Shown here: positions 8,931 to 40,121 of the stretch, piece by piece
How the letters are laid out: each line of letters starts with the position of its first letter
How positions within the stretch are numbered: position 1 is the stretch's first letter
NCBI RefSeq assembly: GCF_006345805.1
Contig: NW_021835387.1
Location: 1 to 40,121, forward strand
Reading direction: 5' to 3'
Source of the DNA: Octopus sinensis
Taxonomy: Eukaryota
Length of the DNA: 40,121 nt
The notes under the pieces: generated by a model
What the model saw: only the letters and a program-made list of their open reading frames with translations
Told to the model about the DNA's origin: nothing
Database searches by the model: none
Made by a program: the position numbers and the translations under genes

Positions 8931-9004
8931 TGTCTAAATTCAAAAACGTCATTATTTTAGTACAAGATGATAAAACGTAGTAAATTAAGACAATCCAGTT
9001 GTTA

Positions 9005-9340
9005 ATAATAATAATAGAGGCACGTCCGCAAGATCGCAACTTAATGTGAATCTCGCACTGGCCAGCCACATAAGATCAAGATAGAAAGAGAGAACATGTA
9101 TTAGGAACTAACTAATCCAAACGAACGAATCCAAACGAGCTGTCCCCCCGCATCTATTTTTCTCTCGTGCTGTGGCTGATGTAGACATCCGGTTTCGCAG
9201 TGAAATCACTGATGACGGCGTCACTCGTCAATCCTGGGTGCATGTAATGCATGGAACCTTCAGCCGGAATGATAGCAGTGAGATTCGAACCCAGAGCTTC
9301 GCTAAACTGCCAAATTCTTCAAGCACTGCACCACCCGGCC
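9005..9340 (-). mobile_element. tRNA-derived SINE, 336 bp
   Basis: Minus strand begins GGCCGGGTGGTGCAGTG (A box) ... GGGTTCGAATCTC (B box) and ends in an (ATT)n tail. The 13-bp TSD AATCCAGTTGTTA lies at 8992-9004 and 9341-9353. The empty site is at 37112-37124. Confidence 0.92.
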
Positions 9341-9423
9341 AATCCAGTTGTTAGGAAGTAAATAAACAAAAAAGACGGGAAATCAAAAAAAGCTTAATTG
9401 AATCAAGATCAGGTGATTTACAC

Positions 9424-11598: not shown

Positions 11599-11889
11599 AT
11601 TTACACGACCAATCAAGAATTTTATATTTTCTAATATTTTATTACAACTTTCAAGTACACAAGTATGGGATTATCTTGTAAATATTAATGAATTTAACTT
11701 ATTTTTTTAAAATTTAATGTATTAAGAACATGATTCAGCGACAGAGATTTCATTTTAAAAGTTTTCCTAAAGAATTCAATTTACAGACTAGAAGTCCATA
11801 AATTACTTATTACAATATTTAATCAAATTAGATATTAATTATTTTATATTAATAAAATACTAAATCCACGTGTTTTGATTTCATTTTTG

Positions 11890-12800
11890 TTGTATCTTTT
11901 GCAGTTACAGTTTCGGATATTACATTTCGGAGATTCGGCTGCATACATTATTACTGATGCATTATTATGTTATCAAACAAAATTTAATATAGATTATCAA
12001 TTTGAAGAGATAAAATGTTTTCTATGCTTAAGGGAAAGATATATAGTGCAACTCGGGAAGAGACTAGCAAAATAATTGAAAAATGTGCTCATTGTCAGGT
12101 ATTTCGTTAAATTATTCGATTTCAGTCCGAAAATTGGTAGCTACAAGGCCGGTTATCACTCCTATTATTGCAAAAGGCCCAAGAGATAGATACATTGCTG
12201 ATTTGATCGATTTAAGAAGATATTCAGAAATAAATAACACCTTTAAATGGGTATTACGATTTATCCAGATTCTTGTTTTGATTGACTCTTTTTGAAAATA
12301 TGGGGTTGTAGAACTTGCTAGAACCAAATGCGCCACAGAAACAGTGCCTATTATTGAAAACATTTTTATGATTGATTTGAGCTCCATTAATCTTGCAAAC
12401 AGATAATGGAAAGGAGTTCAAAAACAATATGATGGAGGAAATGTGCACGAAGTTTGTCACTAAGCACATATGTGGAAGACCACGTGCACTTTGGATACAA
12501 GGTCAGGTAGAACGGTATATTTATTTTGTTAATTTTAAGATTTAACCAATCTATAAAACGATGGATCTCTTCTACAAGCGCTTCAAATGGAATGTTTGGA
12601 GAATATCATGCAATTATTAAAAGAATTGTCGACGAATATAATAATTCAAAACATGACACTACAAAGCATATTCCATTTAACATTTTAATGGAAGTGGGAT
12701 ATGAAAAAAAACTTGATGATTACATTATGCAATCTTTATTGGCTTTTAATGGTAATTATGAAATCCTTTTACGATAAGGAGAAAATGAATACGAAGAAGT
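11890..12800 (+). mobile_element. Ginger/GIN-like DDE integrase gene with micro-introns, frameshifted
   Basis: CAHCQ zinc motif, PIIAKGPRDRYIADLIDLR, ILVLIDSF, LQTDNGKEF, GRPRALWIQGQVER|FNQSIKRW, YNNSKH. Introns at 12515-12539 (strong), 12251-12268 and 12099-12125 (candidates). Confidence 0.85.
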
Positions 12801-12880
12801 AGATTTTGTGTATCAAGAAAGCGAAGAAGTAAATAAAATGCAAAAAGACGTACTTAACAATTTGCATTTTATAATCATAA

Positions 12881-13035
12881 TATGACTTATCGAATGATTT
12901 CTGCAAGTATAGGAGTCCCAAAATAAACTGTATCAGATGTGATTCAGAAATTCAAAAAACTGGATCAAATAACCGACATTCCGGAACTGGATAAAAAAAA
13001 ATATTGACAGAGGAAGAAATTTTGTATATAAAATT
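12881..13035 (+). mobile_element. Tc1 transposase N-terminal HTH fragment
   Basis: MTYRMISASIGVPK*TVSDVIQKFKK...(G)..KILTEEEILYIK is typical of the Tc1 DNA-binding region. Confidence 0.6.
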
Positions 13036-13685
13036 TATTGCAACTGTGATAAACAGGTGGAATGTGCATCTACACTACAACAAATTCGATATGGGAGAGG
13101 TGAAGCTAGAGAGGGGCATATTACAGGGTGACAGTATGTCTCCGCTGCTGTTCATCTTCTGCCTAAAACCGCTGAGTAGAGTCCTCACAGCCCAATTCGA
13201 ACAAATGTCAATTGAACATGAAGGAGGGTGTTTTAGCACCAACCATCTCATGTTCATAGACGACATTAAACTATTCACTCGGTCTTCAGAGATCCTCCAC
13301 TCGATGGGCAATGTCTTGGAAGGTTTCATGAAGGCCGTGGGGTTGGAGCTCAACTACAAGTCGGCGACTAACACCCCTGTATGATGATTTAGTCAAAGCC
13401 TTGGAGGTACACCAAGGATATAAGTATCTTGGTGTGGTTGAGAGTCCAGCCTCATTAATCACACCCGAAACGAGAAAGTGTGTAGCGGAGGGTGTGCGTA
13501 GTAGGGCAGCAATGTTATGTAAAACTCGCCTCAATGAACGGAACTTATTTCATGCCTTGAACGAGTACGAGACGAGTGAAATCGAAATCGAGACGAGTGA
13601 GTACGATGAAATGGACCTTATTGTCCGAAGAGTACTCCGAGAGAATCGCATCAATGTGTTGCCAAGCAATAAGAAGAGATTATTT
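13030..13685 (+). mobile_element. R4/Dong-like reverse transcriptase fragment
   Basis: RGILQGDSMSPLLF, NHLMFIDDIKLF, GLELN..KSA, GYKYLG, LCKTRLNERNLFHALNEY, LPSNKKRL. Confidence 0.9.
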
Positions 13686-13689
13686 GGTT

Positions 13690-14320
13690 CCTCCATCTTC
13701 TGCTCAGCAAAAAGTATGGCTTGAGGCGAGATTTACTCAGAGTTCTGGGCTAACCTCCACGCTGATGGAGATGGAGGGCGATCCTTGGAGGGATGTTGCC
13801 AGTTATCCATCTCTCTGATTTAAGGGAGCTAACAGCGACTGGGCAAATATTGACGTGGTATTAGAGAGGTGGTGATGGCGATAAAGTCTATTCTATGCAA
13901 TGGCAAGAGTTACAACCAAGCCTTTCCTGGTGGCTTCAAATCAGTCAAAAATATGATGATGGCCATACGTATCTGGTCATAAGCGAGGGTCAGAAATGAG
14001 AACTGACCAAAAAGTTCAACTGGCATTAGTCCGAGAAGCAAGAGTGTCTGATGCTTCTGCTTTCATCCTTCTTAATTAGATTTTGCCTTTTCTTTCTTCT
14101 CTTTTCTCTGACGGAGGAAGGTTGCCAGAGTAAGGCCATAGAATCAAACTTGAGAACACCACAAAAGTGGCTTAGGCTCGAAGAGAGAATCGACTGAGAG
14201 AGCGACGAACTAATTATAAAGTAATTTAGTAAAAAGCATGCAGTGTATCCAGATAATTTCTAACTTGAAAACCAGATTTGTATACTGACATTGACTGTGC
14301 CCAATCTGCACAAAGTCCAA
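13690..14320 (-). pseudogene. unidentified host-gene-like fragment
   Basis: GC-richer, codon-like blocks (SVYKSGFQVRNYLDTLHAF; IREMDNWQHPSKDRPPSPSAW) and a candidate intron gtatggccatcatcatatttttgactgatttgaag. Also present in the duplicate. Identity not recognised. Confidence 0.25.
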
Positions 14321-14374
14321 AACAATTAATAATTTTATGTTTTTCTCTTTAAAAAAATATCAGATATAATACTA

Positions 14375-14905
14375 ATTTCATTCTCAAGATTATAAAGATA
14401 CATATTTTACTAAAATGAACAATAAAATAGTACAAAAATCAAAATAGAATATATAGAAATAAAGTTAATTTCAAAAATCAATATTAATGGAGATTAATTA
14501 ATTGACAAAATGAAAAAAAATGCTTGCAAAATGAACTTTAGCCAAGATATTTTACCAGCAGTCGATTTAATTAATCTTCACAAAAATAAAAAACCAAAAT
14601 ATTATAAAAATAATACATCGATTGCAAGAAATGATCAAATAAAAATTAGAAACAGAAATGCACAACAACAAAAGAACAGAATATGACGTGATAAACACGT
14701 GTACAATTTATCGAATTTAATTTCAATAAGTTAAAAACATTTAAAAAATAAAATAGTTAAAATTTAATATCTTCAGTCTGTTTGACATTAACAAAAAAAT
14801 ATGAATTTAACCAATTAACATCAATGATAACGTCAGGTGTACAAACATACCGACCTTTTTTCAGACGAAAAAGACAACAAAATCATATAATTAATTACTT
14901 TAATT
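14375..14905 (+). repeat. ~530-bp AT-rich non-coding interspersed repeat (copy 1)
   Basis: Homologous to 22037-22560 (more diverged) and to 39935-40121. Confidence 0.85.
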
Positions 14906-15379
14906 AACTATACAAATTTTGGATCAAAAATAATAATAAAAAGATTTTCTAATCACATCCAACTGGATCTTCATATTGTAATTTGTGTAAAATTCCGTAA
15001 TAAATAGTTTGTGGAAAGACACGATCTACTTAAAACATATTTTACATATAAAGGATTTTCGAAGGCTCTGGACTTAGAAAATTAATTAGTTAATTAGTTT
15101 CTTTTTATTCATAAAGTCATATAAAGGATTCTAAAATATGAATTCAAATAAGTATTCCTACAACTGTTGATACAAATGATTTTTTATTACATTTAACTGA
15201 AGCATATGTTCTAGCAAATATTCCATTATATAATCTAAGGAATTCTGTCTCAATACATTTTTTAACTATTGGATTTGAGTTATCTCGATTATAGACCATT
15301 AATTTGTTTGCCGAATGCATCAATTGAATTTTAGATTGTGGATGGTAAAATTCGTTTTGTGAATGTTGAAAGAAAAAAA

Positions 15380-17202
15380 CAGCCTCAACACAACCGCCAC
15401 CCACGACACAACTCTTGGACTCCATGATCCGCTTAGTCACACACAAAGCGTCGTGGATTAACCTCTCGATCTCATCACAACCGAAATAATTGGGTCTTCT
15501 GATTACAATGGAGGCAACCGACCTCGCTTTTAGTCTACAAATGGCATCATTATGGCACTACCCAGTAATAAGAATCGACCCACTGCTGACTGACCTGCGC
15601 TGCATTCACAACGAAAGACGACTAAAATGTCTCCCCTCCCTCCAATGAGACCATATCATCCACCACAGTAGCTGAATTAATAAATAAACACTTCCAACTC
15701 CAGTTGCCTTGGCTATCTGTTTGAGATCCGTCTTCAATACTCTCCTCACAGCCATGGCATTGGCAGACACGATCATGTAAATGTCGTCAATTCCCCCAGT
15801 TGTGAACACCACCTTCACCCCAGTGTCCAAAATCTTTATTCTATCAGAAGTGATGCTTATCTTCCGTTTCCTGATATCCTTAAGTTTGGAAGCATCATTC
15901 ATCATCACCTGCACTCCCAACTTGAACTTAGACTTTATTAAACAAAGCCTAGGCAGGTGATCTTAGCATTGGCGACAGATTTGACCATATCTGGAATAAA
16001 ATCATAGAGAACATTACCTACACTCCCAATTCTGCAGTTCACAGCATATGCGTTAACGAGGAATGACTCCCTCACGTTCTGCCATGTGCTTTGAGGATGT
16101 TGATTGCCTTGATGGGCACTTTGTCTGCCCTCACACATCCATTTTGACCTTCGAACAGGCTTCCACACAGATTGGAGCAAAAAAGTCAGCATTTCTACAA
16201 TTTAGACATTTCTTCATACGGGCCAATGACCTTCCTCTGCATCGATGTCTTGGTACTGTTAATCAATCACGTTTTATCAATCTCATTCCCCGATACCAAC
16301 ATCCTCTCCTCAATAAACTTACAGGCCTCTCTACAGTATTGGGGAATGAAAGAGTATTATTTGCAGGCAATTCTGTAGCTGTTGATTACTGAGGTTGGAT
16401 GGACGTTCATTGCGATTTATTTTTCTGCGTTTTTGAAGAGTTTTGCTGTGATAATCACCCGGTTTGAGACGGAGATTGTATTACCACTGATGTTGTCTGT
16501 CCCCTACTTCTTGGTCCTGGAGATTGGCTAATTGAACGAGGATTTTAGCAGCAGGATGTTCCACGTTCATTAATCCGAGTATTGTGGCGATAGTGAAATC
16601 CTAACACCGTCAATGTGGAAAAATACTCCAACCATCATTTTATCAAAATCAATTGGGCCTAGACTGGATTTCAGAATGATCCCGATTGCACATGCGGCTT
16701 TATTTATTTTATTTATTTATTAAAGACCAATGACGGGTAAGCCAGTTAACTATAATAATCCCCGTGATCCCCCGAATCAAGCGAGGGAGATCCTTCTGAA
16801 AGGTTCAATCCTGCTCACAATGATCGGACAGAGACGACGATGTCCCAGGGTCTGAGATCTAGAAGTCCTTTTCGGTAGGCATTAAGTGCCTCCTGAGCGT
16901 TGCCATATCCGAATGGAATTTTCCAACTGACATGGTGGACCGCACAACGCCACGCTAAGACCGGAAGGAAGGTAAAGATCCCCATTTCCAACTGTGTCGT
17001 GCCAGAAGTACTCGTTGCCTCACGGGCAGGGGAACGATAACGAGAATTGGCCCCAGGATGAAAAAGCTTTAACTATTGAGGTCTATCTGGGTTGAATTTT
17101 AATTAAATTAATAATTAGATAATAACGGTTTGTTTCTCTAACAGAATTTCCCGAATTTCTTTCACCAAATAAAAGCAACGGATTTCCCCAAACAGCACTC
17201 AT
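15380..17202 (-). pseudogene. TCP1: T-complex protein 1 subunit alpha (CCT-alpha) unprocessed pseudogene, 3'-truncated
   Basis: Exon 1 MSAVWGNPLLLFGERNSGNSVRETN (17202-17127), then LKAACAIGIILKSSLGP, NVEHPAAKILVQLANLQDQEVGD, HPTSVINSYR, VNAYAVNC, GVQV, TTGGIDD, AMAVRRV, DEIER.IHDALCV.KR..ESK.CV.GGGCVEA. Introns at 17073-17126, 15672-15698 and 15535-15561. It has stops, frameshifts and an exonic insertion, and lacks the C-terminus. Confidence 0.93.
16703..17065 (-). mobile_element. 363-bp retroposon (probably a 5'-truncated LINE 3' end) inserted in TCP1 exon 2
   Basis: (TAAA)n tail at 16703-16721. 6-bp TSD GCTTTA at 16697-16702 and 17066-17071. Removing it restores RETN-LKAACAIG. Confidence 0.8.
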
Positions 17203-17299
17203 GTAGCTTAAGAACTAAAACGTGTTTTATATATTTTTTGAATTACATTTATTTACAAAAATTGTACTATGTCGCGTCCCATGGTGGTAACACTTCCCG

Positions 17300-18780
17300 A
17301 AAACATTTTTATATGTTTATAAAACGTGCGTCGAACCATTTCTTGGAAAACGTATAATTCTTCATACGAACAAAGGGAAGGAATTTGTCAACGATAGGAT
17401 TTCCCGATTGTGTGATGAGTACAGAATAAAACACGTGAGAGGTCATACAAGGTGCCCTTGGTTGCAGGGGCAGATAGAAAAATAAAACCAATCCTTGAAA
17501 TATATGTTGTCCTCCACCTGTTTGTCTGAGAACCTCAAATATAAATGGATTTAAATAAAAGACAGGACAAAGAGTTCATATAACTCAGAGGTTTCCAAGC
17601 TTTTTTTTACGCGCCTCCCTTAGAGAAAAAGTACAATCTTGCGCCTCCCTTTATATTCCATAATATAATACAATTATTATTTTATCAAAAACAATTTTTT
17701 AAAACAAAAAGTTAATGAGATAATTTTTTTTCCATCTTGGCGCAAAGTTTTTCAAATCTTGGTGTCATCGCAGAGAGTGCTACTCTTAGCTCATTAGTCA
17801 CTACTAAACGAGTTCGATATTTAGATTTAATTGCAGCTAGTGCAGAAAATCCAGTTTCGCATAAATATGAAGTAGCAAATGGCAACAAAACTTTCATTGC
17901 TTTATTCGACAAAATTTCATATTCCGTTCTTACATTCAACCAAAAAGAAATTAGCGGTTCTCTCTCAAATTTTTGTTTCAATAATGTATCGCATGACAAT
18001 TCTATCAATTTTTCTTTTTCAAAAGTTGTCAATGCAAATTGATTATCTTCTTCATCAATAAATGGATTCTGTATCCATTCGAACATTTTACAGTCGAGAT
18101 CTTTAAAATAGTGAGCAAAATGCTTCAACAAACAATCCAAATGTTCAGCAAATATGTCTTTGTTTGCTTCAATGTTCACTATGGCGCAAAAGGTGTTTAA
18201 AAGTGGAACATGTCATAGATATTTTTTGTATATTGATTTCCATAATACCAATTTTTCATAAATGCTTTTATTTGTGTGAATCCTAACAATAAGTAAGATG
18301 GAAAGTATTTTCTTGTCTTTGGAGTGGTATTGATTATATTCCAATCATTTTGATTTTTTGAACCATCGTCAAAATCTTTATTATTCGTGAATTTTCTTTG
18401 CACCACTCAAGAATTTATCCATGTGTTAAAATTATTTAATTGTCTAATAATTAAATAAATTTTGAAAAAATATAAATTTTAAATTAATAACTCTTATTAT
18501 CGGAATATAGTCACGTTTTTTACATAGATTATAATTTTCTAAAAAATGTTTCTGAATACTTTGCGCGCCTCCCTTGACACGAGTCAACGCCTCCCTAGGG
18601 AGGCGCGCCCCCCATTTGGAAACCTCTGATATAACTCAACGGTGCATTCCGCTATGTCGTTTGCATCGTTCAGAGTTATGTTTGGAGAAAATGCCGATCA
18701 GTCGGCAAACATGGCGAAGAAGAACTTGTTCTCTTATTCGCAAAATTGGTGGATTAATCCATGTGGATGTAAAAAATGAC
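17300..18780 (+). mobile_element. second Ginger/GIN-like integrase fragment, split by a hAT insertion
   Basis: IILHTNKGKEFVN...KHVRGHTRCPWLQGQIEK*NQSLKYML...KWI before 17585, continuing SYNSTVHSA..SFRVMFG across the hAT after 18636. Confidence 0.8.
17586..18628 (-). mobile_element. internally deleted Buster-type hAT (non-autonomous, 1043 bp)
   Basis: 13-bp TIR CAGAGGTTTCCAA / TTGGAAACCTCTG and 8-bp TSD ATATAACT (17578-17585 / 18629-18636). It retains the N-terminal TRKYFPSYLLLGF and the C-terminal dimerisation region (LLPFATSYLCETGFSAL..IKSKYRTRL). Confidence 0.95.
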
Positions 18781-18789
18781 GTAGAGAAC

Positions 18790-19064
18790 TGCATGGCAAA
18801 GCGGCCGTTAATTCGATCCGTGAACTTATTGAATCCTCCGAGGCGCCAATCATGGTTAAACTAGACGTCTCGAACGTCTTCAATTCCATCAGACGTGACC
18901 ACCTACTGGAATGGTGCCGCGAACTGGTTCCGTTCGCTTATCCCCTCGTACATCTTTCATAAGCTTCCTTATGCTCGATGATGTTCAAATCTCTTCGTCT
19001 ACAGGGCTCCAGCAGGGCGATCCACTGGGTCCTGTTCTTTTTTCTTGGGCGTAATCATGGGTCC
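18790..19064 (+). mobile_element. CRE-clade RT fragment
   Basis: AAVNSIRELI...VKLDVSNVFNSIRRD...GLQQGDPLGPVLF. Confidence 0.8.
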
Positions 19065-21424
19065 GTCATAAACCACGTGGACCGGGACTAGAAAAACAAA
19101 AATGGGGAGTACGTCAACATCTATAATCAAATCGATTATATCATCTGTAGACAAGAAGAAAAACATCGATTGCTGGATGCCAGGTTCATATGGCGGGGCA
19201 CTAACACTGAGCGATCACTAAGTCATTGTGGCACGATTGAGACTGAAAAGAATTTTGGATCGCCTCTTTCAAAAGAAAATGAATCAAACCGAATTAGATA
19301 CTCAGTGGAAAAACTGATTACATCAGTGTTACCAGGAAAAATACTCCAGGCAATCATCGACGAAACCTAAAAGTAACAGAAACGGTAAAAGACCCAAACA
19401 AAAGCTGGGATATATTAGAAAAACTTATTCACAAAGCTGCAACGGAAACCATTGGAACGACTGCATTCAGAAACCACTCAAACCCATTGAATCCAAATGT
19501 TGCCGAAATGGCAACAAAACAAAAAGCCATCCAACTGAAAATTGAAACACCAACGACAAGGAGGCAAAGGAAAAACTCAAAGAGAACGTAGGAAAATATC
19601 GAGAACAATCAAGAAGGAAAATCTTAAATACGTGAAAGCTTTATTAAACTCTCGAATATCAGAAGTTGAAGACTTAAAGGATGGTGCGCAAATGTACGCA
19701 GCCATCAGACTACTACGCCGACGACAACAGAAAACAAAAACTGGTTGTGCACGATGAACATGGGAAAACAATTGGAAACCCCATCGAAATGGTAAATACA
19801 ATCGCCGACCACTTCGAAATACTATTCAATGGCAGGCCGATGCTCTCGATGAGGGTGAAGAACGTTATCTAAACAACAAAATAACACACCTTGAAGTTTT
19901 GAAGGCTATAAAAAAATTAAAAAACAACCGTGCGGCGGGTCCAGACAACATCAACGGTGAATTGATAAAGTACTCCCCAATGGAGATCTCAACTAAATCA
20001 CAAATCTCCTGAACGAGATGTTCCATGGAAATACCATACCGCCTATTGGGAAAGGAACGCTAATTCCTCTCCAAAAACCCAACAAGCCGCAAGGTCCTCT
20101 TAACAACATTCGCCCAATCATACTCTTGAACACAATAAGGAAAATCTTCTCACTCGTAACACACTGGAACGTATTAAGGACCCTGTTAATGAATATCTGT
20201 CGGCTAGCCAAAGTGGATTCAGGCCTGGGCGATCAACTGCAGATGTAGTATGGGGACATAGATGGATCTGTGCCATATCTCAGAAATTTAAAATGGCGAC
20301 CACAATATTGGGCATTGATATGAGCAGGGCATTTGATACAATCCGCAGAGACAAGCTAATGGAGATCCTCAAAACCATTCTTGACAATGACTCGATCAGA
20401 ATGGTTCGAGCACTACTTATAGACACCGAGTTAACGGTGAAGATCGGACCCGTAACAATCAAGATCTTTCAAAACAAGCATTGGAACGCCCCAAGGTGAT
20501 TCAATATCACCTGTACTATTCCTTGTCTATCTTGAAGCGGCACTAAGAGATCTGAGAAAACTAGTGAAGACTACTTCAATAACTGAAGTGATATATGCCG
20601 ACGATGTAGACTTTTTGTCTCATGATAGTCGACACTCGAAGAACTGCTGAACATTGCTCCTCATGCACTGGAAAAATGGTTCTTAAAAGTGAACATAGAA
20701 AAAACCGAATATGTAACAATCAACCGGGAGGCAAATAGAACAGACGAAAAATGGCGAAACTCGAAAAAAGTGGAACTCTTTTAGGAGATAGCGAAGACAT
20801 TATGAGGAGAAAGATGCTATCGACTGTTGCACTTAACAAACTGCGGACCACTTGCTACGAAACCGCGAGGTTGGAACGGCCTTACGTGCCAAATTATACA
20901 ATGCTTTTATTAAACCCATACTTTTGTACAACGGAGGAACATGGGGAATATCTGAGTCTGAATCAAAATCTCTTGATGCATTCCATAGAAGACAGTTAAG
21001 AATTCTTATTGGCATCAACTGGCCAAAGAAAATCAAGAACTCCAACTAACTACCATATATACAATCTGCAACAGCAGACCCGTCAGTGTGGACATTACCG
21101 AAGCACGTTGGCGCCTATTGGGCCACATTCTAAGACTCGACCAGGATGTCTATGCTAACTGGGCAATGGAATCATATTACGCAAAGGACGAAAGATCTGC
21201 GTCCGAGACACGCCCACGAAATACATTACCTATTGTAATCTCAAAGAACTACAACGCGTTAAAAGACAACTGAAAAATGGAGACGACCTAGATACTCTCA
21301 GGAGTATAGCATACAACCGCACATCATGGAAAATTATGACCGAAAAGATAGTCTCATATGTGGCACATGTGGGAACTTAATTAGTTTAAATTACATTATG
21401 TTCCTATGACAGTGCTAATAATAA
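19065..21424 (+). mobile_element. RTE-clade LINE, 5'-truncated, frameshifted
   Basis: YNQIDYI (APE C-terminus), RPIILLN, GIDMSRAFDTIRR, PQGDSISP, YADD, LYNAFIKPILLYN..TW and a (TAA)n tail. 13-bp TSD TAATCATGGGTCC at 19052-19064 and 21425-21437. Confidence 0.93.
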
Positions 21425-21578
21425 TAATCATGGGTCCTTCTGTCCTTTTTTACTCATATCAATTTCCACGGAAAATTCTTCATTGTGATTAACCTCAAAT
21501 GCTTACTCGCTGGAAAAATTTCCAACCTATACAATAATTATCCGGCAATGACTGTATATTGGTTTTCAAAGAAAAACA

Positions 21579-22034
21579 CTCAACCCTCTCAAATTGGCGA
21601 GCTTTTTATATGAACTATAAACGAATATTTCTTGATGTTCTAACAAATCCGTTAAATATGCAAGTTTATGCTTATTGAAATGCGTTTTAAATTTTTTATG
21701 ACTCCCAGGTCAATGGCTGGACCAAGCCTGTACTATTTCGCGGTCTAAACATGATTTCAATATTAGACAAATCTCTTCTGGTATGCAATGGGAAAACAGT
21801 TATCCAGAATGACCAAAATTTGTTTTCTCTGTAGTTTTAGATTCATATCAAAGTATATTAGCCAATCTATGAAGATTTTCCAGTCATCTAAGCAGGCTGG
21901 GAGCTATAAATTTGTGGCCAATCTGAGAACTGGCCATTTTGCAGAGGTTTTTTCATTTTCCAGAGGTAAATTGTTAAAAATGGCCAATTTGAGAGGTGGG
22001 CCAATTTGAGAGCGGCCAATTTGAGAGGGTTAAG
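21579..22034. mobile_element. pogo/Tc1-mariner-type MITE (~456 bp)
   Basis: TIR CT(C/T)AACCCTCTCAAATTGGC at both ends, flanked by CA (left) and TA (right). Three tandem GCCAATTTGAGAG motifs at the right end. Confidence 0.75.
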
Positions 22035-22036
22035 TA

Positions 22037-22560
22037 ATTTCATTCTCAAGAATTTTGAGTCAAGATTATAAATAATATATTTACTAAAATGAAAAATAAA
22101 ATACTACAAATAAAAATAGAATAATAGAAATTAAGTTAATTCTAAAAATCAAATATTAATGGAGATTAATTATGAAAAAAATTCGCTTGCAAAATAAACT
22201 TTATCCAAGATATTTTACTAGTAGTCAATTTAATTAATCTTCACAAAAATAGAAAAGCAAAAATATTATAAAAATAAAGCATTGATTTCAATAAATGATC
22301 AAATAAATTAAAAACAAAAATGCACAACAAACAACAAAATATGACGTGCTAAACACGTGAACAATTTATTGTATTTAATTCAATAACTCAAAAACATTTA
22401 GAAAATAGAATAAATAAAATTTAATATTTTCAGTCTGTTTGACATTAGCAGAAAATATGAATTCAACCAATTAACATCAATGAAGACGTCCGATGTAAAA
22501 ACATACCAATTTCTTTCTCAGACGAAAAGGACAAAGAAAATCATGTAATTAATGACTTTG
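22037..22560 (+). repeat. ~530-bp AT-rich interspersed repeat (copy 2)
   Basis: Aligns with 14375-14905 throughout (e.g. TTCAGTCTGTTTGACATTA, AACCAATTAACATCAATGA). Confidence 0.85.
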
Positions 22561-22629
22561 AAAAAACAACCTAATAAACACCTAAAGAGAGTCAATACAG
22601 ATTAGGAAATTATGACTCGCCAAAAGCTG

Positions 22630-23210
22630 GCTGCACCGCGGATAACAAACGAATTGCCTCGCAAGATTGCTATAGATACCTTCTGGTACAGTCACCTGGT
22701 TTCCCGGTAGTCATTCGTGTTCTTTCCAACGAGCTTCACGATGACCGAAAGAACCCTCTTCCCAGCAGTCCAAATCACGCCGCTCGTCTCCACAGCAATT
22801 GGAACAAAGTGGTATGAGTCAGGAAGTGACGCGTACTTGCTCCGCTTGTTTTTTCTTCGGCCCGACAAGACGCGAAGCCAGAACACGACGCAGACTGAGT
22901 AACGGTCCCCTGAGCAAAGATGTCAGCACAGGTTATATCCCAAACGAGACATTCCCCTTGCTGTGTGGGAATACAGTCATTCCGTCCGGACGCTTGCCGT
23001 CTCCGCGATCAAGACCAGTGAGCTTCAGAACCGAAGGGAAGGCTGCGACATTAAGCCCTAGTTTGACGACGTTGTTCAAACTGGAGTGTCTCGAGGTACG
23101 TCCACCACTTGACCGACAAGAAATAGGATGGAGGTTATCCGAGACCATCAACTACCCGCATTTGCATGAATGGGGTGGCAAAGAGAGATTCCGAGTCGTA
23201 AACAGGTATT
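22630..23210 (-). mobile_element. CRE-clade 3' fragment (REL endonuclease)
   Basis: LHPISCRSSGGRTSRH, DGKRPDGMTVFP, KYASL...FVPIAVETSG, ETRWLYQ...AILRGN. Confidence 0.88.
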
Positions 23211-23409
23211 AAGTTGAACTAACTCATCATCCAAAAGTATCCAGCCGAGGATAGTGGGACGGCATTTAACCAGTTTAACTAGTGTGGTTGCAGTGGAGGG
23301 AAATCGAGAGTGAAAGAAAATTCAGTCAGTTCGAAATGTTAAGAAGAGGGAAAAAGAACAGAATTCACAAAATTTCTCGATTCCGAGAGCAGAGCAAAAA
23401 TTATTTTAG

Positions 23410-23615
23410 CAACGTTCTCCCTGATTTGATTTCCACGTCAGTTCGGCGTTGGTGTCCGAGATGCCTGTGAAGCATTTGCCTACGGACTAAGGGAACTGGC
23501 CACAAAGCCAACTCCCAAATCTCGTTTCTCGTTAAGCTGGATGTGTGCAACGCCTTCAACAGTGTTTGCAGGGACCACATCCTGGAAGTCATTTACGCCC
23601 GTTGATTGACCGATT
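23410..23615 (+). mobile_element. CRE-clade RT fragment
   Basis: QFGVGVRDACEA and VKLDVCNAFNSVCRDHIL. Confidence 0.7.
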
Positions 23616-23659
23616 GTTTACTTATTTTACGCGTGTCCTTCAAATCTTATTTGAGAAAA

Positions 23660-23975
23660 ATTTGCTAATCTCAGCGTCTAGTCCTTTCGTTGACAGATTC
23701 GATTCCGTCTCGAGGAAGCTCCTCTCAAGGAAGATATTCCAATCCGACTTTCCTCTGAAGCTAAAAATATGGATTACCAACTTCCTAAGTGGACGAAGGG
23801 GAAGGGTGTGCCTCGGTGGTCTGAAGTCCAAATCTCTTCTTCTACCCAACGGAGTACCTCAGGGATCCCCTTTATCCCCGGCCCTCTTCAACCTATTTTT
23901 GGAAGACCTCCCTCACTCCCTCGACAACAATGACATTGTTCTCTCATACGCGGACGACATCGTGCTAGCCTCACG
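23660..23975 (+). mobile_element. Jockey/I-group RT fragment
   Basis: FDSVSRK, WITNFLSGR, GVPQGSPLSPALFNLF, YADDIVL. Confidence 0.85.
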
Positions 23976-23979
23976 ATTG

Positions 23980-25830
23980 TGCATCCCATTTCCATTTCGT
24001 TGCGACTTAAGGCTAACATATCGGCATGCATGTCTTATCCCTCGGATTTCTCTAGTTGGTTAAGTGCCCCTGTGAAGGCCCAAAAGAAGAGCCAAAACCA
24101 CCAGCCCCGCGTCCTACAAAACGACAAGAGCATTGACCGCGACGCCATACGCCCACGTGAACGTGTAAACGCCCAACTATTGGAAGAAAATGTCGCCGAC
24201 GTTGTGCGAGTACTGGCCTCCGATTCAAAAGCTTTCGAAATAACCCCCAAATTCTTACATAACTCAAAGCAAAGCACCCCACCCCAATCAATTCTCTTCC
24301 AACCGGTAGCTGTGGCGGTATAGACGGTCATCGACCCGGAAACGTCAAAGACATGCTCTCCCCCAAACCTGTGAAGCTGGTCACCGCCTCCTATCCTCTC
24401 AAACAGCTCTTACGAACCGTATTTTGAACGGAGAGATCTCCGAGTATGCTCGTGACTTATTTTTTGCCGCCAATCTCACCGCCCTGAGAAAAAAGGAGTC
24501 CGTCCATCGCCGTGGGTTTTCTCTTCTTTCGCCGATTGGCGTCAAAAGTAGCCTGCAGACAAACCACTAAGTTGCTGGAATCGGAATTACGCCCAATACA
24601 ACTCGGCGTATGTGTTCGGGGAGGCTGCGAAACAGAAAGTTTGTTTTTTCCTTGCAAGATCGGCCATAAGAAAGTTTGTTTTTTCCTTGCAAGATCGGCA
24701 AGACAAGCCTTGTCTTTTTATCAAGATAGACTTGGCTAATGCTTTTAACTGTGTGCGTAGTGAAACTTTCTTCGAATCTGTTACCTGTCGCTACCCAGCA
24801 ATCTAGCGCCTCGTCGCCTTGGCCTACCGCCAGCCCAGCCTCCTTATCGCCGGGAATCAGACAATTCTGTCCAACAATGGAGTAAAGCAAGGTGACCCTC
24901 TGGGCCCTCTCCTTTTCGCCTTGGCTGTGGATAATGTTGCCATGATGGTTTCATCCCATTTAAATATCTAGTATTTAGACGACGCCACCATAGGTGGTTC
25001 ATCTGAATCGGTCCTAGATGATCCGAGAATCCTAATCCCCTCCCACGCTATCCTTCTCTAAATAAGTCCCAACAAATAATGAATATCAGTTACGATCCAC
25101 ATCATTTTCCCGATATTCTCCACTCGTTTAACTCCTATCAACCTTCGACCGTGATCTCATGTCTTGCCTCGAAACAATCTCTAGCGCCCCTTTGATGACC
25201 TCGACTGGAAGCAAGCAATCCTCCTGGTTAGTCACAGTTGCATTGGTGTGCGCTCTGCCGCTGATCATTCCATGCCAGCATCCTTTCCTCTGTTCACGCC
25301 ACTAGCTTTCTCGTCCATGAAATCTCCAATCCGTTTCTGAATCCCACCTGGACTCTGATTTCTCTTCGGCTGTCAGATCTTGGTGATGTGGTGATCGTGC
25401 CCTGACTTGTGCAGGATTCCTAACGTATTGAAACCAGTATGGTTGGATCGCGGAAATGGAAAGCGCCCAGATGGCATGACAACATTTTCCTTCGACAAAG
25501 GAAAATGCCTCATCTGGGCGCGAAGTTCTCAGACATATTCTCTCCCAACAACCTGATCTCGTCAGTTGCCGAGCCTAGGTCGGCGGCCAAACTCGCGGAG
25601 TTGAGAAAATTAAGAAAGTACGTCCCTGACCAGAAATCATATTTTGCGTCAATAGCGGTCGTGACATCGGGGTAATCGGTCTGGAAACACTTTCTTTGCT
25701 TTGTCGACTTGGGACAAAGATCGCCAAAAAAGCAAAAACCAAAACGAGACTTGTCATCTTCCCAAAGAGTCTTGTTGGCGATCGCCCGGGGGTAAAGCCA
25801 TCTTATGTGCTGGAAATTCACTATACATAG
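23980..25830 (+). mobile_element. degenerate CRE-clade retrotransposon (RT + REL), internally deleted
   Basis: FFAANLTALRKK, QLGVCVRGGCE, KIDLANAFN, GVKQGDPLGPLLFALA, YLDD, W.QA.L....GVRSA, AELRKLRKY..IAV.TSG. A 31-bp internal direct repeat lies at 24634-24664 / 24669-24699. Confidence 0.9.
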
Positions 25831-26052
25831 TATAAATTAGTGGTTTAAAACTTTTAATTTTAAATTTTTGTTGTCAGAAGAAAATTGAATAGAAACAAAA
25901 ATTAAATTGATTGAAAATCTTTGTTGTGACATGTTATTAACATTTTAATCGACTTTCAAATTGTACCAGGCTTACACCACAAGACACTAAATCTAAGCAG
26001 AAATAATTTATTAGATTTAAATAATTAATTATATTTTTTAATATTTAATAAA

Positions 26053-26757
26053 ATGAATGCCCTCAAACGTAATAAATTTCATTTAATTTTGATTAGTCAC
26101 TGTAAATCAACTAATGTCGTTTTTACTGCCTGCTGTGCTGTTACTTGCCACAAAAAATCCTGTTGACTCCTCTGACTGGCAGAGCCACATCAAGAAAGAC
26201 AACATGGACGCCTCCTATTCAGACCAGGACAGGGAACAATACTCAATCAGCCTAAAAAACTACAACTCGACCTTAATCGACCGAATAATAAATAAGACAG
26301 GGGGAAAGACAGTCCCTTGTGATCTCTTTGGGGATACCCCACTAGTAATGTTCTGCATGAATAACGCCACATGTTATGCTGACATTGTCTTTGAAAAGGC
26401 GTCTCCATATTGCATGTAACAGCCTATTTTTTATTTAGATGCACTCCCTTTCATGGCAACATCTATATAGGAGATCGATGCCAAACAGAATATCCTAAAA
26501 AATATTTTGTATCTCACCAAGCGAGTATTTGTTATTTTTTTAAAGTAGATGAGAAGAAGATACTGATCTTCATGATAATATTTAATTCTTTACTCACTTT
26601 GCTGGCTCTAATTTTGCTGGTCCGTATTATTTTATTCCGCAGAAAGTTTTTTATTTGATAAATGTATAGTGCCTGGAATTTTCTCTTCAATCTCCGATAC
26701 CCTTATCAGTCATTATATTCTTCGGATGTTATTATTCGGCCATTTAATGTTAATTAG
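26053..26757 (+). CDS. single-EGF type-I membrane protein, EGFR/ErbB-ligand-like, 5 exons, 202 aa
   Basis: Exons 26053-26068, 26097-26415, 26439-26524, 26546-26645 and 26670-26757 (introns 28, 23, 21, 24 nt) give a 609-nt open frame. It has a hydrophobic leader (MSFLLPAVLLLA), an EGF domain CDLFGDTPLVMF-CMNNAT-CYADIVFEKASPY-CI-CTPFHGNIYIGDR-C and a TM segment ILIFMIIFNSLLTLLALILLVRIILF-RR. Confidence 0.85.
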
Positions 26758-26869
26758 TTATTTTGTTAATTTTTTTTGTAATCGTTATTTCTTAAACATT
26801 TTTATTCTTGATTTAATTGCCTAAACTTATTGATTATAATTTAAAAATTACTAATAATTTTCTAATGAA

Positions 26870-27169
26870 ACTAAAATTTTGTTTATCAGTTTGGGGTTTT
26901 CTTTTTATAATTATCGAATAAATGGCATTTCAAAAAACAACCCTAAAACATAAAAATAAATAATAAAACCACTATCTATGTCCGAGTTTGATTTTATAAT
27001 ATAATTATAATAAGTTGATATGAGACATTGTTTTTATAATCCTAACGAAGTTTTCATCGTCAGAAATACCTTCCATTTAATTCTATTGTTTAATTTATCA
27101 ATTAGCTTTCCTGTTGTTATACAATTATTACAACGACCCCCACAAGCTCAATCGGCTCTTCAAGCGTGT
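26870..27169 (+). repeat. ~300-bp local direct repeat, copy A
   Basis: Near-identical to 27520-27824, ending at the same CAAGCGTGT. Confidence 0.9.
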
Positions 27170-27171
27170 TT

Positions 27172-27478
27172 GGCTGTTACATGCAATATGGAGACGCCTT
27201 TTCAAAGACAATGTCAGCATAACATGTGGCGTTATTCATGCAGAACATTACTAGTGGGGTATCCCAAAGAGATCACAAGGGACTGTCTTTCCCCCTGTCT
27301 TCTTTATATTCGGTCGATTAAGGTCGAGTTGTAGTTTTTTAGGCTGATTGAGTATTGTTCTCTGTCTTGGTATGAATAGGAGGCGTCTATGTAGTTCTTC
27401 TCGATGTGGCTCTGCCAGTCGGGAGAGTCGATTGGGTCTTTTGTGGTGAGTAACAGCACAGCAGGCAGTAAAAACGAC
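27172..27478 (-). pseudogene. inverted genomic copy of exon 2 (plus 9 nt of intron 2) of the EGF gene family
   Basis: The reverse complement aligns to 26116-26424, including the intronic GTAACAGCC. Confidence 0.92.
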
Positions 27479-27519
27479 TTGGAAATTTAATGATGAGTTT
27501 GTAAAATAAGTTTAGCAAA

Positions 27520-27824
27520 AACACTAATTTTTTTTATCAGTTTGGGGTTTTATTTTTTAATATCGAATAAATGCCATTTCAAAAAATAACTCTTAAAAAT
27601 AGATAATAGAACCACTATCTATGTCCGAGTTTGACCTTATAATATATTGTATAAGTTGATGAATTAAATGCTTTATGAGACATTGTTTTTATAATCCTAA
27701 CGAGGTTTTCATCGTCAGAAATACCTTCCATTTAATTCTATTGTTTAATTTATCAATTAGCTTTCCTGTTGTTATACAATTATTACAACGACCCCCACAA
27801 GCTCAATCGGCTCTTCAAGCGTGT
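27520..27824 (+). repeat. ~300-bp local direct repeat, copy B
   Basis: Near-identical to 26870-27169. Confidence 0.9.
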
Positions 27825-28460
27825 CTTAATAGCTGCTATAATGGGGAACAGTTTCTCAATTCTCTCTGCGGATGGTCCCAATTTCCTTTTGTTTTTTTGT
27901 TTAATATTCGAATTCTAGATTTAAAAAAATTATTACATATGGTATCGATATGGAACCAACGGAGTTTGAGTTTATTTATCAAAATGTACATGGAAGCCTG
28001 GTACATCTGAACCAGGAAGAAAAGTTATATTTATCATATTTTACAAAATATCAATAAGAAGAAGATTGCTGTCAGTGACAAGAGTGAACAAATACTTTTC
28101 TAATTGTGAAAAGACTTGGAAAAGAAGTTGTCTATTATCTAATAAGAGTGGGTATTCTACTGATTGTTAAGTAAAGAAAACATAGCCACAATCTAGAATA
28201 TCTTAACCGCATTCAAAGATTTTGGAAAATTATTGATGAGTTTGTTAAAACAAGTTTAGCAAAAACATATAATCGAAAAGATTGAAAAAAAGTCCTTCCA
28301 TTTAATACTTTTTAATTGTCAAACGTGGACAGTAGTAGTTTTGGTCCTAACTTGAAATGGTATTATAAGCAATTTTAATCAACATCATTCAAATATTCTC
28401 AAAGTAGACAACTTAATCAAGGTGTATATTGAAAGCACTGTAAAAAAGAAGACCCTAGAA

Positions 28461-35720: not shown

Positions 35721-37489
35721 TATCCGTATAAGGTTTTGATGCTAACACCGACATTTTCTTTTTTCAATTATCTAGTAAGATATCCAATTTGTATCGATCA
35801 AACGGATTTTAAAACTTTGTAATAATGTCCAATTTAGATTTCCAGACATTTTTGCGCATAACATCACAGATATTTATCTTTGAAGTTTTGTGTATCCTCC
35901 GAAACAAATACTACAGATATACTAAATTACATAAGCTTATAGAATATTACAGTTTGATATATATATCTGATCCCTGGTTTATGACATTTAAAGTTCTTTA
36001 AATTCTTCGAACAGCCGTTTTATGTAGACACTTTGTCAGTAGACATGTTTACATGTAATTCCTCACCTGAAATCCATGCTTTTTCTTAAAATTGGATAAA
36101 AATTCATAAGAGTTTTGAAATATTAAAAAAGCTGCTTAAAAATAATTCTGCCTTTCTTGACATTAATGCATCGCTCAATAATGCAGTTTAAAAAACCCTA
36201 AGATGTACTTTTGACTGTCATCTGTATACCGCAACATTTACACTTGAGTTTGTATATTACCACCAGAAGCACAACGAAGCATGCCGGCAAAATAGTGTTT
36301 TATGTTTATTAAAAATAAAAAGTTTCAATTTTCAGTAATTTTTTAAAGACTAAAAAATAGTGGTAAATTTTGAAATTGACTAAAATTAGAAAATTTCTTA
36401 AAAAATTGGGAAATAAAATGGCAATTTAATACAGTTTATTCTTAATTTATCTCTAATGAATGACAATAACCAAAATTTTTTGCCCTGTAAAGTACGTAGG
36501 TCATTCTTCTCGCCAGCGTAGATCGGGTCATTGTTGATATTTAGACAGTAAAGAAATTAAGTTTTAGTAAATTTTGTTCTCAACATAATGTCAAATAAAA
36601 TAAAAACACTAAAATGAAGTAAAAAAGAGTAGAAATAAAAAAGAGAATTACCAGATTTAGTCGTATTGCCACATTTAATAACCTTATATACGAACTAATT
36701 CAGTAGTCAATCTTACATTTATAAAAATTACATATAATTAAAAAATAAGAGAAAGTTTTAATCTCAAACCTTATCTCTACCCAGCCTGGCTGTCTCAATC
36801 GTCCTCACGTGAAGGGCCAGCCAAAAAATAATCTTATCAAAATCAGCTCTCATCAACCTCCATAATGAACCTACGCCCACTTTTGGATCTTTATTTGTAA
36901 AAATCAGGTATTTCCGTCAACTTTGATTAGTCTGGAAAACACTTTACGTCCGATATCACTTCAATCCTGTTTCCAAAAACTCGAGAAATATCCCCACTAA
37001 TTTTTTCCTCAGAATCGAACTAGGAATATTGAGAGCTTGCAAAAATATTAGTGTCTAAATTCAAAAATATCATTATTTAGTACAAGATGATAAAACGTAG
37101 TAAATTAAGACAATCCAGTTGTTAGAAGTAAATAAACAACAAAAAGGGACGGGAAATCAAAAAAAGCTTAATGAATCAAGATCAGGTGATTTACACGACC
37201 AATCAAAAATTTTATATTTTCTAATATTTTATTATACTTTCAAAGTACACAAGTATGGGATTATCTTGTAAATATTAATGAATTTAACTTTATTTTTTAA
37301 AATTTAATGTATTAAGAACATGATTCAGCGACAGAGATTTCATTTTAAAAGTTTTCCTCTAAAGAATTCAATTACAGACTAGAAGTCCATAAATTACTTA
37401 TTACAATATTAATCAAATAGATATTAATTATTTTATATTAATAAAATACTAAATCCACGTGTTTTGATTTCATTTTTGTTGTATCTTTG

Positions 37490-38400
37490 CAGTTACAGTT
37501 CCGGATATTACATTTCGGAGATTCGGCTGCATACATTATTACTGATGCATTATTATGTTATCAAACAAAATTTAATATAGATTATCAATTGAAGAGATAA
37601 AATGTTTTCTATGCTTAAGGGAAAGATATATAGTGCAACTCGGGAAGAGACTAGCAAAATAATTGAAAAATGTGCTCATTGTCAGGTATTTCGTTAAATT
37701 ATTCGATTTCAGTCCGAAAATTGCTAGCTACAAGGCCGGTTATCACTCCTATTATTGCAAAAGGCCCAAGAGATAGATACATTGCTGATTTGATCGATTT
37801 AAGAAGATATTCAGAAATAAATAACACCTTTAAATGGGTATTACGATTTATCCAGATTCTTGTTTTGATTGACTCTTTTTCAAAATATGGGGTTGTAGAA
37901 CTTGCTAGAACCAAATGCGCCACAGAAACAGTGCCTATTATTGAAAACATTTTTATGATTGATTTGAGCTCCATTAATCTTGCAAACAGATAATGGAAAG
38001 GAGTTCAAAAACAATATGATAGAGGAAATGTCTACGAAGTTTGTCACTAAGCACATATGTGGAAGACCACGTGCACTTTGGATACAAGGTCAGGTAAAAC
38101 AGGTATATTTTATGTTAATTTTAAGATTTAACCAATCTATAAACGATGGATCTCTTCTACAAGCGCTTCAAATGGAATGTTTGGAGAATATCATGCCAAT
38201 TATTAAAAGAATTGTCGACGAATATAATAATTCAAAACATGACACTACAAAGCATATTCCATTTAACATTTTAATGGAAGTGGGATATGAAAAAACTTGA
38301 TGATTTACATTATGCAATCTTTATGGGCTTTAATGGTAATTTTGAAATCTTTTACGATAAGGAGAAAATGAATACGAAGAAGTAGATTTTGTGTATCAGA
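37490..38400 (+). mobile_element. duplicate of the intron-bearing Ginger-like integrase
   Basis: Same motifs as 11890-12800; the corresponding intron is at 38103-38125. Confidence 0.85.
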
Positions 38401-38462
38401 AAGCGCGAAGTAAAATAAAAGCAAAAAGACGTACTTAACAATTTGCATTTTATAATCATAAT

Positions 38463-39260
38463 ATGACTTATCGAATGATTTCTGCAAGTATAGGAGTCCC
38501 AAAATAAACTGTATCAGATGGATTCAGAATTCAAAAAAACTGGATCAAATAACCGAACATTCCGGAATGGATAAAAAAAATATTGACAGAGGAAGAAATT
38601 TTGTATATAAAAATTTATTGCAACTGTGACTAAACAGGTGGAATGTGCATCTACACTACAACAAATTCGATATATGGAGAGGTGAAGCTAGAAAAGGGCA
38701 TATTACAGGGCGACAGTATGTCCCCCCGCTGCTGTTCATCTTCTGCCTAAAACCGCTGAGTAAAGTCCTCACTGCCCAATTCAAACAAATGTCAATTGAA
38801 CATGAAGGAGGAGTGTTTAGCACCAACAATCTCATGTTCATGGACGACATTAAACTATTCGTTCGGTCTCAGAGATCCTCCACTCGATGGGCAATGTCTT
38901 GGAAGGTTTCATGAAGGCCGTGGGGTTGGAGCTCAACTACAAGTCGGCGACTAACACCCCTGTATGGGTGATTTAGTCAAGGCTTGGAGGTACACCAAGG
39001 ATATAAGTATCTTGGTGTGGTTGAGAGTCCAGCCTCATTAATCACACCCGAAACGAGAAAGTGTGTAGTGGAGGGTGTGCGTGAGTAGGGCAGCAATGTT
39101 ATGTAAAACTCGCCTCAATGAACGGACTATTTCATGCTTGAACGAGTACGAGACGAGTGAAATCGAAATCGAGACGAGTGAGTACGATGAAATGGACCTT
39201 ATTGTCCGAAGAGAGAGTACCGAGAGAATCGCATCCATGTGTTGCCAAGCAATAGATTAT
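38463..39260 (+). mobile_element. duplicate of the Tc1 fragment + R4-like RT fragment
   Basis: Colinear with 12881-13685, with more indels. Confidence 0.85.
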
Positions 39261-40121
39261 GGTTCCTCCATCTTTCTGCTCAGCAAAAAGTATGGCTTGA
39301 GGCGAGATTTACTCAGAGTTCTGGGCTAACCTCCACGCTGATGGAGATGGAGGGCGATCCTTGAGGGATGTTGCCAGTTTTCCATCTCTCTGATTTAAGG
39401 GAGCTAACAGCGACTGGGCAAATATTGACGTGGTATTAAGAGGGTGTGATGGCGATAAAGTCTATTATATGCAATGGCAAGAGTTACAACCAAGCCTTTC
39501 CTGGTGGCTTCAAATCAGTCAAAAATATGATGATGGCCATACGTAATTGGTCATAAGCGAGGGTCAGAAATGAGAACTGACCAAAAAGCTCAACTGGCAT
39601 TAGTCCGAGAAGCAAGAGTGTCTGATGCTTCTGCTTCATCCTTCTTAATTAGATTTGCCTTTCTTTCTTCTCTTTTCTCTGACGGAGGAAGGTTGCCAGA
39701 GTAAGGCCATAGAATCAAACTTGAGAACAACCACAAAAGTGGCTTAGACTCGAAGAAGAGAATCGACTGAAAGCAGACGAACTGATTAAAAGTAATTTAC
39801 TAAAAAGCATGCAGTGTATCCAGATAATTTCTAACTTGAAACCAGATTTGTATACTGACATTGACTGTGCCCAATCTGCACAAAGTCCAAACACAATTAT
39901 AATTTTATGTTTTTCTCTTTAAAAAAATATCAGATATAATACTAATTTCATTTCAAGATTATAAAGATACATATTTTACTAAAATGAACAATAAAATAGT
40001 ACAAAAATCAAAATAGAATATATAGAAATAAAGTTAATTTCAAATCAATATTAATGGAGATTAATTAATTGACAAAATGAAAAAAAATTGCTTGCAAAAT
40101 GAACTTTAGCCAAGATATTTA

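Follow-up and report, generated by a model that had tools for sequence, protein, structure and literature searches.

A candidate divergent EGFR/ErbB-ligand gene with micro-introns on a probably dicyemid contig filed under Octopus sinensis

Ligands of the EGFR/ErbB receptors were defined by Stein and Staros by a splice site lying between cysteines four and five (C4 and C5) of their EGF module and by that module's position close to the transmembrane (TM) helix (PMC1618406). Barberan et al. require in addition that the EGF module be single (PMC4914847). Endogenous ligand precursors are described as running in the order signal peptide, pro-region, EGF module, stalk, TM helix and tail, with important Gly and Arg residues before C6 (PMC8851504), and the Arg is present in all verified ligands except the tomoregulins (PMC1618406). 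The human ligands follow the consensus CX7CX4-5CX10-13CXCX8C (PMC8943033). Counted by eye in the supplement of PMC4914847, the C5-C6 loop has 8 residues in 73 of 74 ligands and 9 in the other. The splice site between C4 and C5 is also found in spitz genes from outside Drosophila, and the combination of splice site and position picks out mucins 3, 4, 12 and 17, the meprins and IMPG2 as well (PMC1618406).

We analysed a contig of 40,121 nt filed under Octopus sinensis (NW_021835387.1, hereafter the window). The first-pass annotation had proposed that, once four micro-introns of 28, 23, 21 and 24 nt are removed, a 202-aa open reading frame (ORF) appears, with a leader, one six-Cys module ending in GDRC, a stalk of about 19 residues, a TM helix and a short tail, and that the 23-nt intron, in phase 2, interrupts the codon lying between C4 and C5. 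Splicing at these coordinates gave 202 aa followed by a stop, all of the parts were present in the spliced translation, and the hinge intron was found at the DNA level (Table 1). The analysis thus confirmed, at that level, a real and unannotated gene for which the predicted five-exon model holds.

Table 1. Coordinates of the predicted gene and of the other features of the window.
Feature	Position	Strand	Description
Micro-intron gene, whole model	26053-26757	+	Five exons; splicing out the four introns gives 202 codons and a stop
Exon 1	26053-26068	+	Initiation codon and the signal peptide's opening 5 codons
Intron 1	26069-26096	+	28 nt, GT-AG, phase 1, 14% GC
Exon 2	26097-26415	+	Core of the signal peptide, hydrophilic pro-region bearing 2 N-glycosylation sequons, C1-C4 of the EGF module
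Signal-peptide hydrophobic core (predicted)	26111-26149	+	Residues 11-23; from hydropathy only
EGF-like module, single	26318-26481	+	Cys80-Cys126; interrupted by intron 2
Intron 2	26416-26438	+	23 nt, GT-AG, phase 2, in the C4/C5 hinge codon; in-frame stop inside
Exon 3	26439-26524	+	C5, 12-residue C-loop, C6, most of the stalk
Intron 3	26525-26545	+	21 nt, or 24 nt if the acceptor at 26548 is used; phase 1, 14% GC
Exon 4	26546-26645	+	End of the stalk, TM helix (26560-26622), Arg167, Arg172, Arg173
Intron 4	26646-26669	+	24 nt, phase 2, directly past the TM helix; in-frame stop inside
Exon 5	26670-26757	+	Short cytoplasmic tail, three Tyr, stop codon
Inverted partial duplicate of 26116-26424	27172-27478	-	93% identical
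Second micro-intron gene	4081-5275	+	Signal peptide, ectodomain, C-terminal hydrophobic stretch, basic tail
hAT transposon, apparently intact	9424-11596		Terminal inverted repeats, 8-nt target duplication, 561-aa transposase
Segmental duplication	7612-14552 and 35744-40120		95-96% identity, many 1-nt indels
Chaperonin TCP1-alpha, decayed copy	15375-16698	-	Three frameshifted pieces
Integrase-like ORFs	12000-12780 and 37590-38400	+	Seemingly broken by short AT-rich GT-AG segments

Taken as a whole, the predicted protein resembles the spiralian ligands (mostly putative ones, including Owenia EGF-1) and Drosophila Spitz and Keren, with which it shares a signal peptide, one EGF module, a short stalk, a TM helix and a tail. 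In the part of the published sequences compared by eye, these ligands also have a C3-C4 loop of 12 residues and a G-x-R-C end, as here. Most of them start the loop with an aromatic residue and Ala, namely Lottia EGF, Capitella EGF-1, Terebratalia EGF, Lineus EGF-2 and Spitz among those with the 12-residue loop, and a C1-C2 loop of 11 to 13 residues, to be compared with 11 here, was seen by eye in the ligands of the bryozoan Membranipora and of planarians. In contrast with these ligands, whose C-loop (C5-C6) has 8 residues, the loop has 12 here, and both the Cys after the signal peptide and the small-residue entry into the TM helix of the Spitz type are absent; sequence similarity to the spiralian or Spitz ligands is not established as measurable. 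In Spitz-type ligands, the N-terminal Cys is the site of palmitoylation and the small-residue motif at the TM entry is that of rhomboid cleavage.

Among vertebrate proteins, TGF-alpha, HB-EGF, betacellulin and epigen are made as precursors of about 150 to 210 aa with their parts in the same order. The sequence Pro-x-Cys-x-Cys precedes the hinge in the first three of them, and these vertebrate ligands end in aromatic-x-Gly-x-Arg-Cys, both as in the predicted protein. The genes for TGF-alpha, HB-EGF and NRG1, like those for betacellulin and epigen, have a phase-2 hinge intron and another intron just past the TM helix, again as in the present model. The departures from the vertebrate consensus are a C1-C2 loop of 11, a C5-C6 loop of 12 and introns of 21 to 28 nt; five residues past C6 there is a Pro, where these ligands have a Leu. 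A juxtamembrane EGF module with a C4/C5 splice site is common to Neuregulin and Vein as well, and several NRGs end in Gly-Asp-Arg-Cys. Nevertheless, the Ig domain and the long intracellular region of those proteins are both missing here, so that the protein is not of the NRG type as defined in PMC4914847: its pro-region is devoid of Cys and has no Pfam match. The other proteins with a C4/C5 splice site and a near-TM EGF module (mucins 3, 4, 12 and 17, meprin A, IMPG2, tomoregulin/TMEFF and neuroglycan C) are large and multidomain, several of them without the Arg before C6, whereas only a short pro-region precedes the module here.

The predicted protein has six Cys in all, at positions 80, 92, 98, 111, 113 and 126, giving a spacing of 11-5-12-1-12 and a G-D-R-C end. 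C2-C3 (5), C3-C4 (12, starting with an aromatic residue and Ala after C3) and the single hinge residue thus lie within the human consensus, while the C5-C6 loop of 12 exceeds the 8 residues that it prescribes. Gly123 and Arg125 before C6 match Gly39 and Arg41 of EGF. The module is single and stands in a precursor of the signal-pro-EGF-stalk-TM-tail type, its splice site between C4 and C5 is predicted from the DNA at 26416-26438, and the stalk from C6 to the TM helix is 19 residues long. The TM helix, like the signal peptide, is predicted from hydropathy only (residues 146-166) and is followed by three Arg. With a hydrophilic pro-region of about 55 residues, the ectodomain amounts to only about 120 aa. 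No GT-AG intron that might shorten the C5-C6 loop was found within that stretch. Two GC-AG introns inside it (26456-26470, 15 nt; 26456-26473, 18 nt) were considered and rejected, as their removal would cut the loop to 7 residues or take out the conserved Gly.

Introns and exons of the model differ in GC content (0.14-0.26 versus 0.32-0.44). The donor reads GTA in three of the four introns, a reduced donor known from myxozoans and Dicyema (PMC13644364). A longest-ORF search started from the ATG at 26053, to which the candidate introns were not supplied, recovered introns 1, 2 and 4 together with the same stop, and at the highest intron penalty it recovered introns 1 and 2 alone. The EGF module requires intron 2 only, and introns 1, 3 and 4 of the predicted model are less certain. 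Met12, at 26114, is an alternative start that would bypass intron 1. Intron 3 is the least certain of the four predicted introns: it is in frame, it contains no stop, a second acceptor lies 3 nt downstream, and forms of 201, 202 and 209 aa all fit, with a seventh Cys if the intron is retained. Retention of intron 4 would give 177 aa and shorten the tail, with no other effect. A sequencing frameshift was rejected as an explanation of intron 2, as translation through it runs into a stop immediately, and that stop recurs in the inverted copy of the locus. Five runs labelled Octopus sinensis, probably host transcriptomes, contained almost none of the sequence words searched for; over 15100-27150, four of them gave only AT-rich pieces of 18 to 37 nt, with no joints, which counts neither for nor against the splicing.

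We then asked how readily such a module would appear by chance. The candidate micro-introns of the whole window, on both strands, numbered 1,088 (GT-AG, 18-36 nt, GC at most 0.35), and a single one of them, at 26416-26438, completed a loose six-Cys EGF pattern. Block shuffles (n = 713) gave a loose match in 10 cases, and none yielded the G-x-R-C version or an intron in the C4/C5 hinge; these patterns were defined after the gene had been seen, and the figures are somewhat generous.

The window has a GC content of 36% and consists mostly of transposon debris. Among 51 animal genomes, introns this short were reported only from myxobolid myxozoans and Dicyema japonicum (PMC13644364), and the introns of Dicyema sp. 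have a median of 27 bp (PMC6543705). D. japonicum inhabits the renal sac of O. sinensis, attached to the renal tissue, and its genome has 36.7% GC and 49% repeats (PMC6736024). The 561-aa hAT transposase of the window (9750-11435) belongs to a 22-member cluster in which 7 entries are named; all 7 carry the label Octopus sinensis and sit on contigs between 15 kb and 1.03 Mb long. The transposase is 98-100% identical to 4 of the 14 cluster members listed, those four being labelled Octopus sinensis on contigs of 0.2-1.0 Mb. A transposon may cross species, so that this evidence on the lineage is indirect. On account of the micro-introns, the GC content and the transposase matches, the window is very probably a dicyemid contig filed under the label of its octopus host, and the earlier description of the source as a very reduced animal agrees with this. 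A myxozoan origin would account for the introns but not for the octopus label, and we give it little credence. True octopus DNA was rejected, as introns so short were reported only from myxobolids and dicyemids in the sources consulted. The lineage matters because cnidarians, and hence myxozoans, are without EGFR, so that a myxozoan origin would remove the receptor, whereas spiralians, to which the dicyemids belong, nearly always have one (PMC4914847).

The inverted copy next to the gene lacks a start and ends 9 nt into intron 2. Over the 202 nt that precede C1 it differs from the gene by 19 substitutions, and over the 107 nt that start at C1 it shows no substitution (Fisher p = 0.0003, with the breakpoint set at C1); 15 codons are changed among codons 22-51, 6 of them silently. 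As selection alone would be expected to leave silent changes in the EGF part, where there are none, the copy more likely arose by recent gene conversion or as a chimera with a diverged paralogue. A fold-back read artefact was rejected, given the 19 substitutions, several of them silent, and the lack of a mirror image. The two 1-nt gaps of the copy resemble long-read errors, of which the contig has many. Local duplications flank the inverted fragment (26875-27169, 27526-27824, 27479-27523 and 28222-28267), which suggests that the sequence just downstream of the EGF gene underwent a complex rearrangement.

Elsewhere in the window, the gene at 4081-5275 has introns at 4127-4152 (26 nt) and 4213-4244 (32 nt) and candidate introns at 4601-4625, 4775-4801, 5075-5099 and 5163-5188. 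Its frame breaks near homopolymers, by sequencing error or decay, and one of its exons gave nothing significant against Pfam. The hAT transposon is missing from the duplicate block at 35744-40120, so its insertion is recent. The 1-nt indels between the duplicate blocks suggest unpolished long-read sequence, and the integrase-like ORFs are possibly a transposon gene with micro-introns.

Homologue searches were run with separate exon pieces of the gene, and the halves of the module carry little signal. Neither half matched an EGF family in Pfam. One of 10 matches in the PDB was of EGF type, weakly (Pfs28, E = 0.62), and nothing was significant. With phmmer, the exon pieces matched three sequences among 1.84 billion representatives, all of them ankyrin-repeat proteins and none an EGF ligand. 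A word-index search with the C-terminal piece confirmed none of 68 candidates, and a metagenome scan none of 231 pattern matches. The ESM Atlas returned low-recognition ankyrins and one match below 0.9, with no EGF family. By exact look-up in the protein library, the exon-2 ORF was absent, as were all 10 other ORFs of the window that were looked up. As a control, the TCP1 remnant of the window served as a query and picked up a single relative, at only 56% (1 of 148 candidates; 0 of 1 in a second search). The searched library thus seems to be without full-length proteins of this lineage, and the blank searches say little. An ankyrin-repeat identity was rejected, as the E-values sum weak repeats of which the best single one scores 13.6 bits, no Pfam ankyrin was matched, and the fold model contains no helix; the tandem helical 33-residue repeats of ankyrins are absent. 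That model, computed from the single sequence of the C1-C4 fragment, has a pLDDT of 55, two strands and a hairpin off the place expected for EGF, and at such low confidence it weighs little either way.

As for the receptor, the main text of Lu et al., as far as it was accessible, makes no mention of EGF, ErbB or tyrosine kinases, and in their domain tables for D. japonicum 4 genes carry PF00008, FGF, PDGF/VEGF, Hedgehog and DSL stand at zero, and the Receptor-L and furin-like domains are not among the rows (PMC6736024). EGFR-related terms are absent from PMC6854800, and the accessible text of Zverkov et al. refers to EGF once, for the basement membrane, and nowhere to ErbB (PMC6543705). The accessible dicyemid genome literature yielded no report that describes an EGFR from these animals; further information may lie in subscription work (e.g., Ogino et al. 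2010) and in supplements. A parasitic flatworm retains a ligand-receptor pair of its own (PMC12963305). D. japonicum has one Notch LNR gene and no DSL gene (PMC6736024, Table S6): either its Notch is without a canonical ligand, or a DSL gene is hidden by gene models broken at micro-introns.

Thus, the first-pass proposal of a candidate receptor tyrosine kinase ligand holds for the architecture, for the splice site at C4/C5 and for the Arg that precedes C6, and is weakened by two points that it left unmentioned, the 12-residue C5-C6 loop and a criterion that is not specific. Likewise, its premise that the splice site marks EGFR ligands stands as one of the Stein-Staros criteria, and fails as a mark of ligands only, since mucins, meprins and IMPG2 share the feature. 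Our preferred reading is that the locus is a functional micro-intron gene, most likely from a dicyemid, and that its product is probably a divergent EGF-type ligand for receptors of the EGFR/ErbB family. Ligands of such build and dicyemid micro-introns are both already known. We file the gene as a probable divergent ligand and not as a proven member, because the near-invariant length of the C5-C6 loop is not kept and the receptor is only putative. EGF trees were poorly resolved in both PMC4914847 and PMC1618406, and the proposed tree with EGFR ligands may therefore not settle the question.

The protein might instead be a real single-EGF membrane protein that is no ligand, such as an adhesion or surface protein or a remnant of the mucin, meprin, IMPG2 or TMEFF type, which we regard as rather unlikely. 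Proteins of the mucin, meprin and IMPG2 families satisfy the same splice-and-position definition, the C-loop of 12 residues lies outside the range of the ligands, the exon-piece searches matched no EGFR ligand, and the window carries another lineage-specific type I membrane gene. However, SEA, astacin, Kazal and mucin-like regions are all absent from the short ectodomain, and the protein keeps the Arg before C6, which in IMP2, MUC12, MUC4, MUC17, one meprin and the tomoregulins is either substituted or not constant (PMC1618406). It is very improbable that the locus is non-functional, be it as a pseudogene, a product of chance or a fragment resembling ankyrin. The contig is repeat-rich, with 1-nt indel noise between its duplicated blocks, the adjoining inverted copy is broken, and the only database matches are ankyrin proteins; nevertheless, the ORF is intact over five exons, none of the 713 shuffles gave the G-x-R-C version, and the ankyrin matches dissolve into summed weak repeats that neither Pfam nor the helix-free fragment model supports.

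Two further readings place the protein in another signaling context. The dicyemid may have lost EGFR, and a tethered or shed protein, derived from a ligand and with a remodelled C-loop, might stimulate the EGFR of the host renal epithelium. A dicyemid EGFR is unreported in the genome papers as far as accessible, the loss of receptors and ligands in dicyemids is extreme (PMC6543705, PMC6736024), the parasite attaches to renal tissue, and the B-loop is like that of molluscan and annelid ligands. EGF-like peptides acting against the ErbB of another animal are described from ants and from sea anemones, the latter themselves without EGFR (PMC8851504). Even so, such a host-directed role seems improbable to us: silence in papers is not genomic absence, all the more as the tables have no Receptor-L or furin-like rows; the known mimics have no TM tether (PMC8851504); an 8-residue C-loop would be expected to persist in a mimic of host ligands; and likeness to spiralian ligands is expected from descent. 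A non-canonical Notch ligand or modulator, replacing a lost Delta/Serrate, would suit the D. japonicum gene counts given above, one Notch LNR gene and no DSL gene, but we consider it extremely unlikely. The EGF repeats of Notch ligands are in tandem, with shorter loops and with introns between repeats, which counts against it; the lone module, the C3-C4 loop of 12, the hinge intron and the G-x-R-C end form the pattern of an EGFR ligand.

If the gene does encode an EGFR/ErbB ligand, its pre-mRNA would be spliced at the four micro-introns, and the protein would enter the endoplasmic reticulum and be displayed as a type I membrane protein, its EGF module folding with disulfides C1-C3, C2-C4 and C5-C6. 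On an adjacent cell, the ligand would then switch on an EGFR-family kinase encoded by the animal itself, in juxtacrine fashion while still tethered or else once ADAM-type shedding has cut it within the 19-residue stalk. Release by a rhomboid would be less likely, because the Spitz-type small-residue motif at the start of the TM helix is absent. In a body of about 30 cells, such a ligand might signal over a short range to control cell fate or proliferation.

The gene illustrates what is lost when introns shorter than 30 nt are disallowed and when parasite contigs bear the label of their host. If it is a ligand, its 12-residue C-loop would broaden the tolerance known for the ligand fold. It offers a concrete candidate for a surviving growth-factor/receptor tyrosine kinase axis in dicyemids and makes the retention of EGFR in these animals testable. 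If the dicyemid EGFR has been lost, a host-directed role becomes testable, and, were that role true, one of the simplest animals would, as a parasite, be sending its host a growth-factor signal. If a dicyemid EGFR exists, EGFR signaling would be part of the minimal toolkit of an extremely simplified bilaterian.
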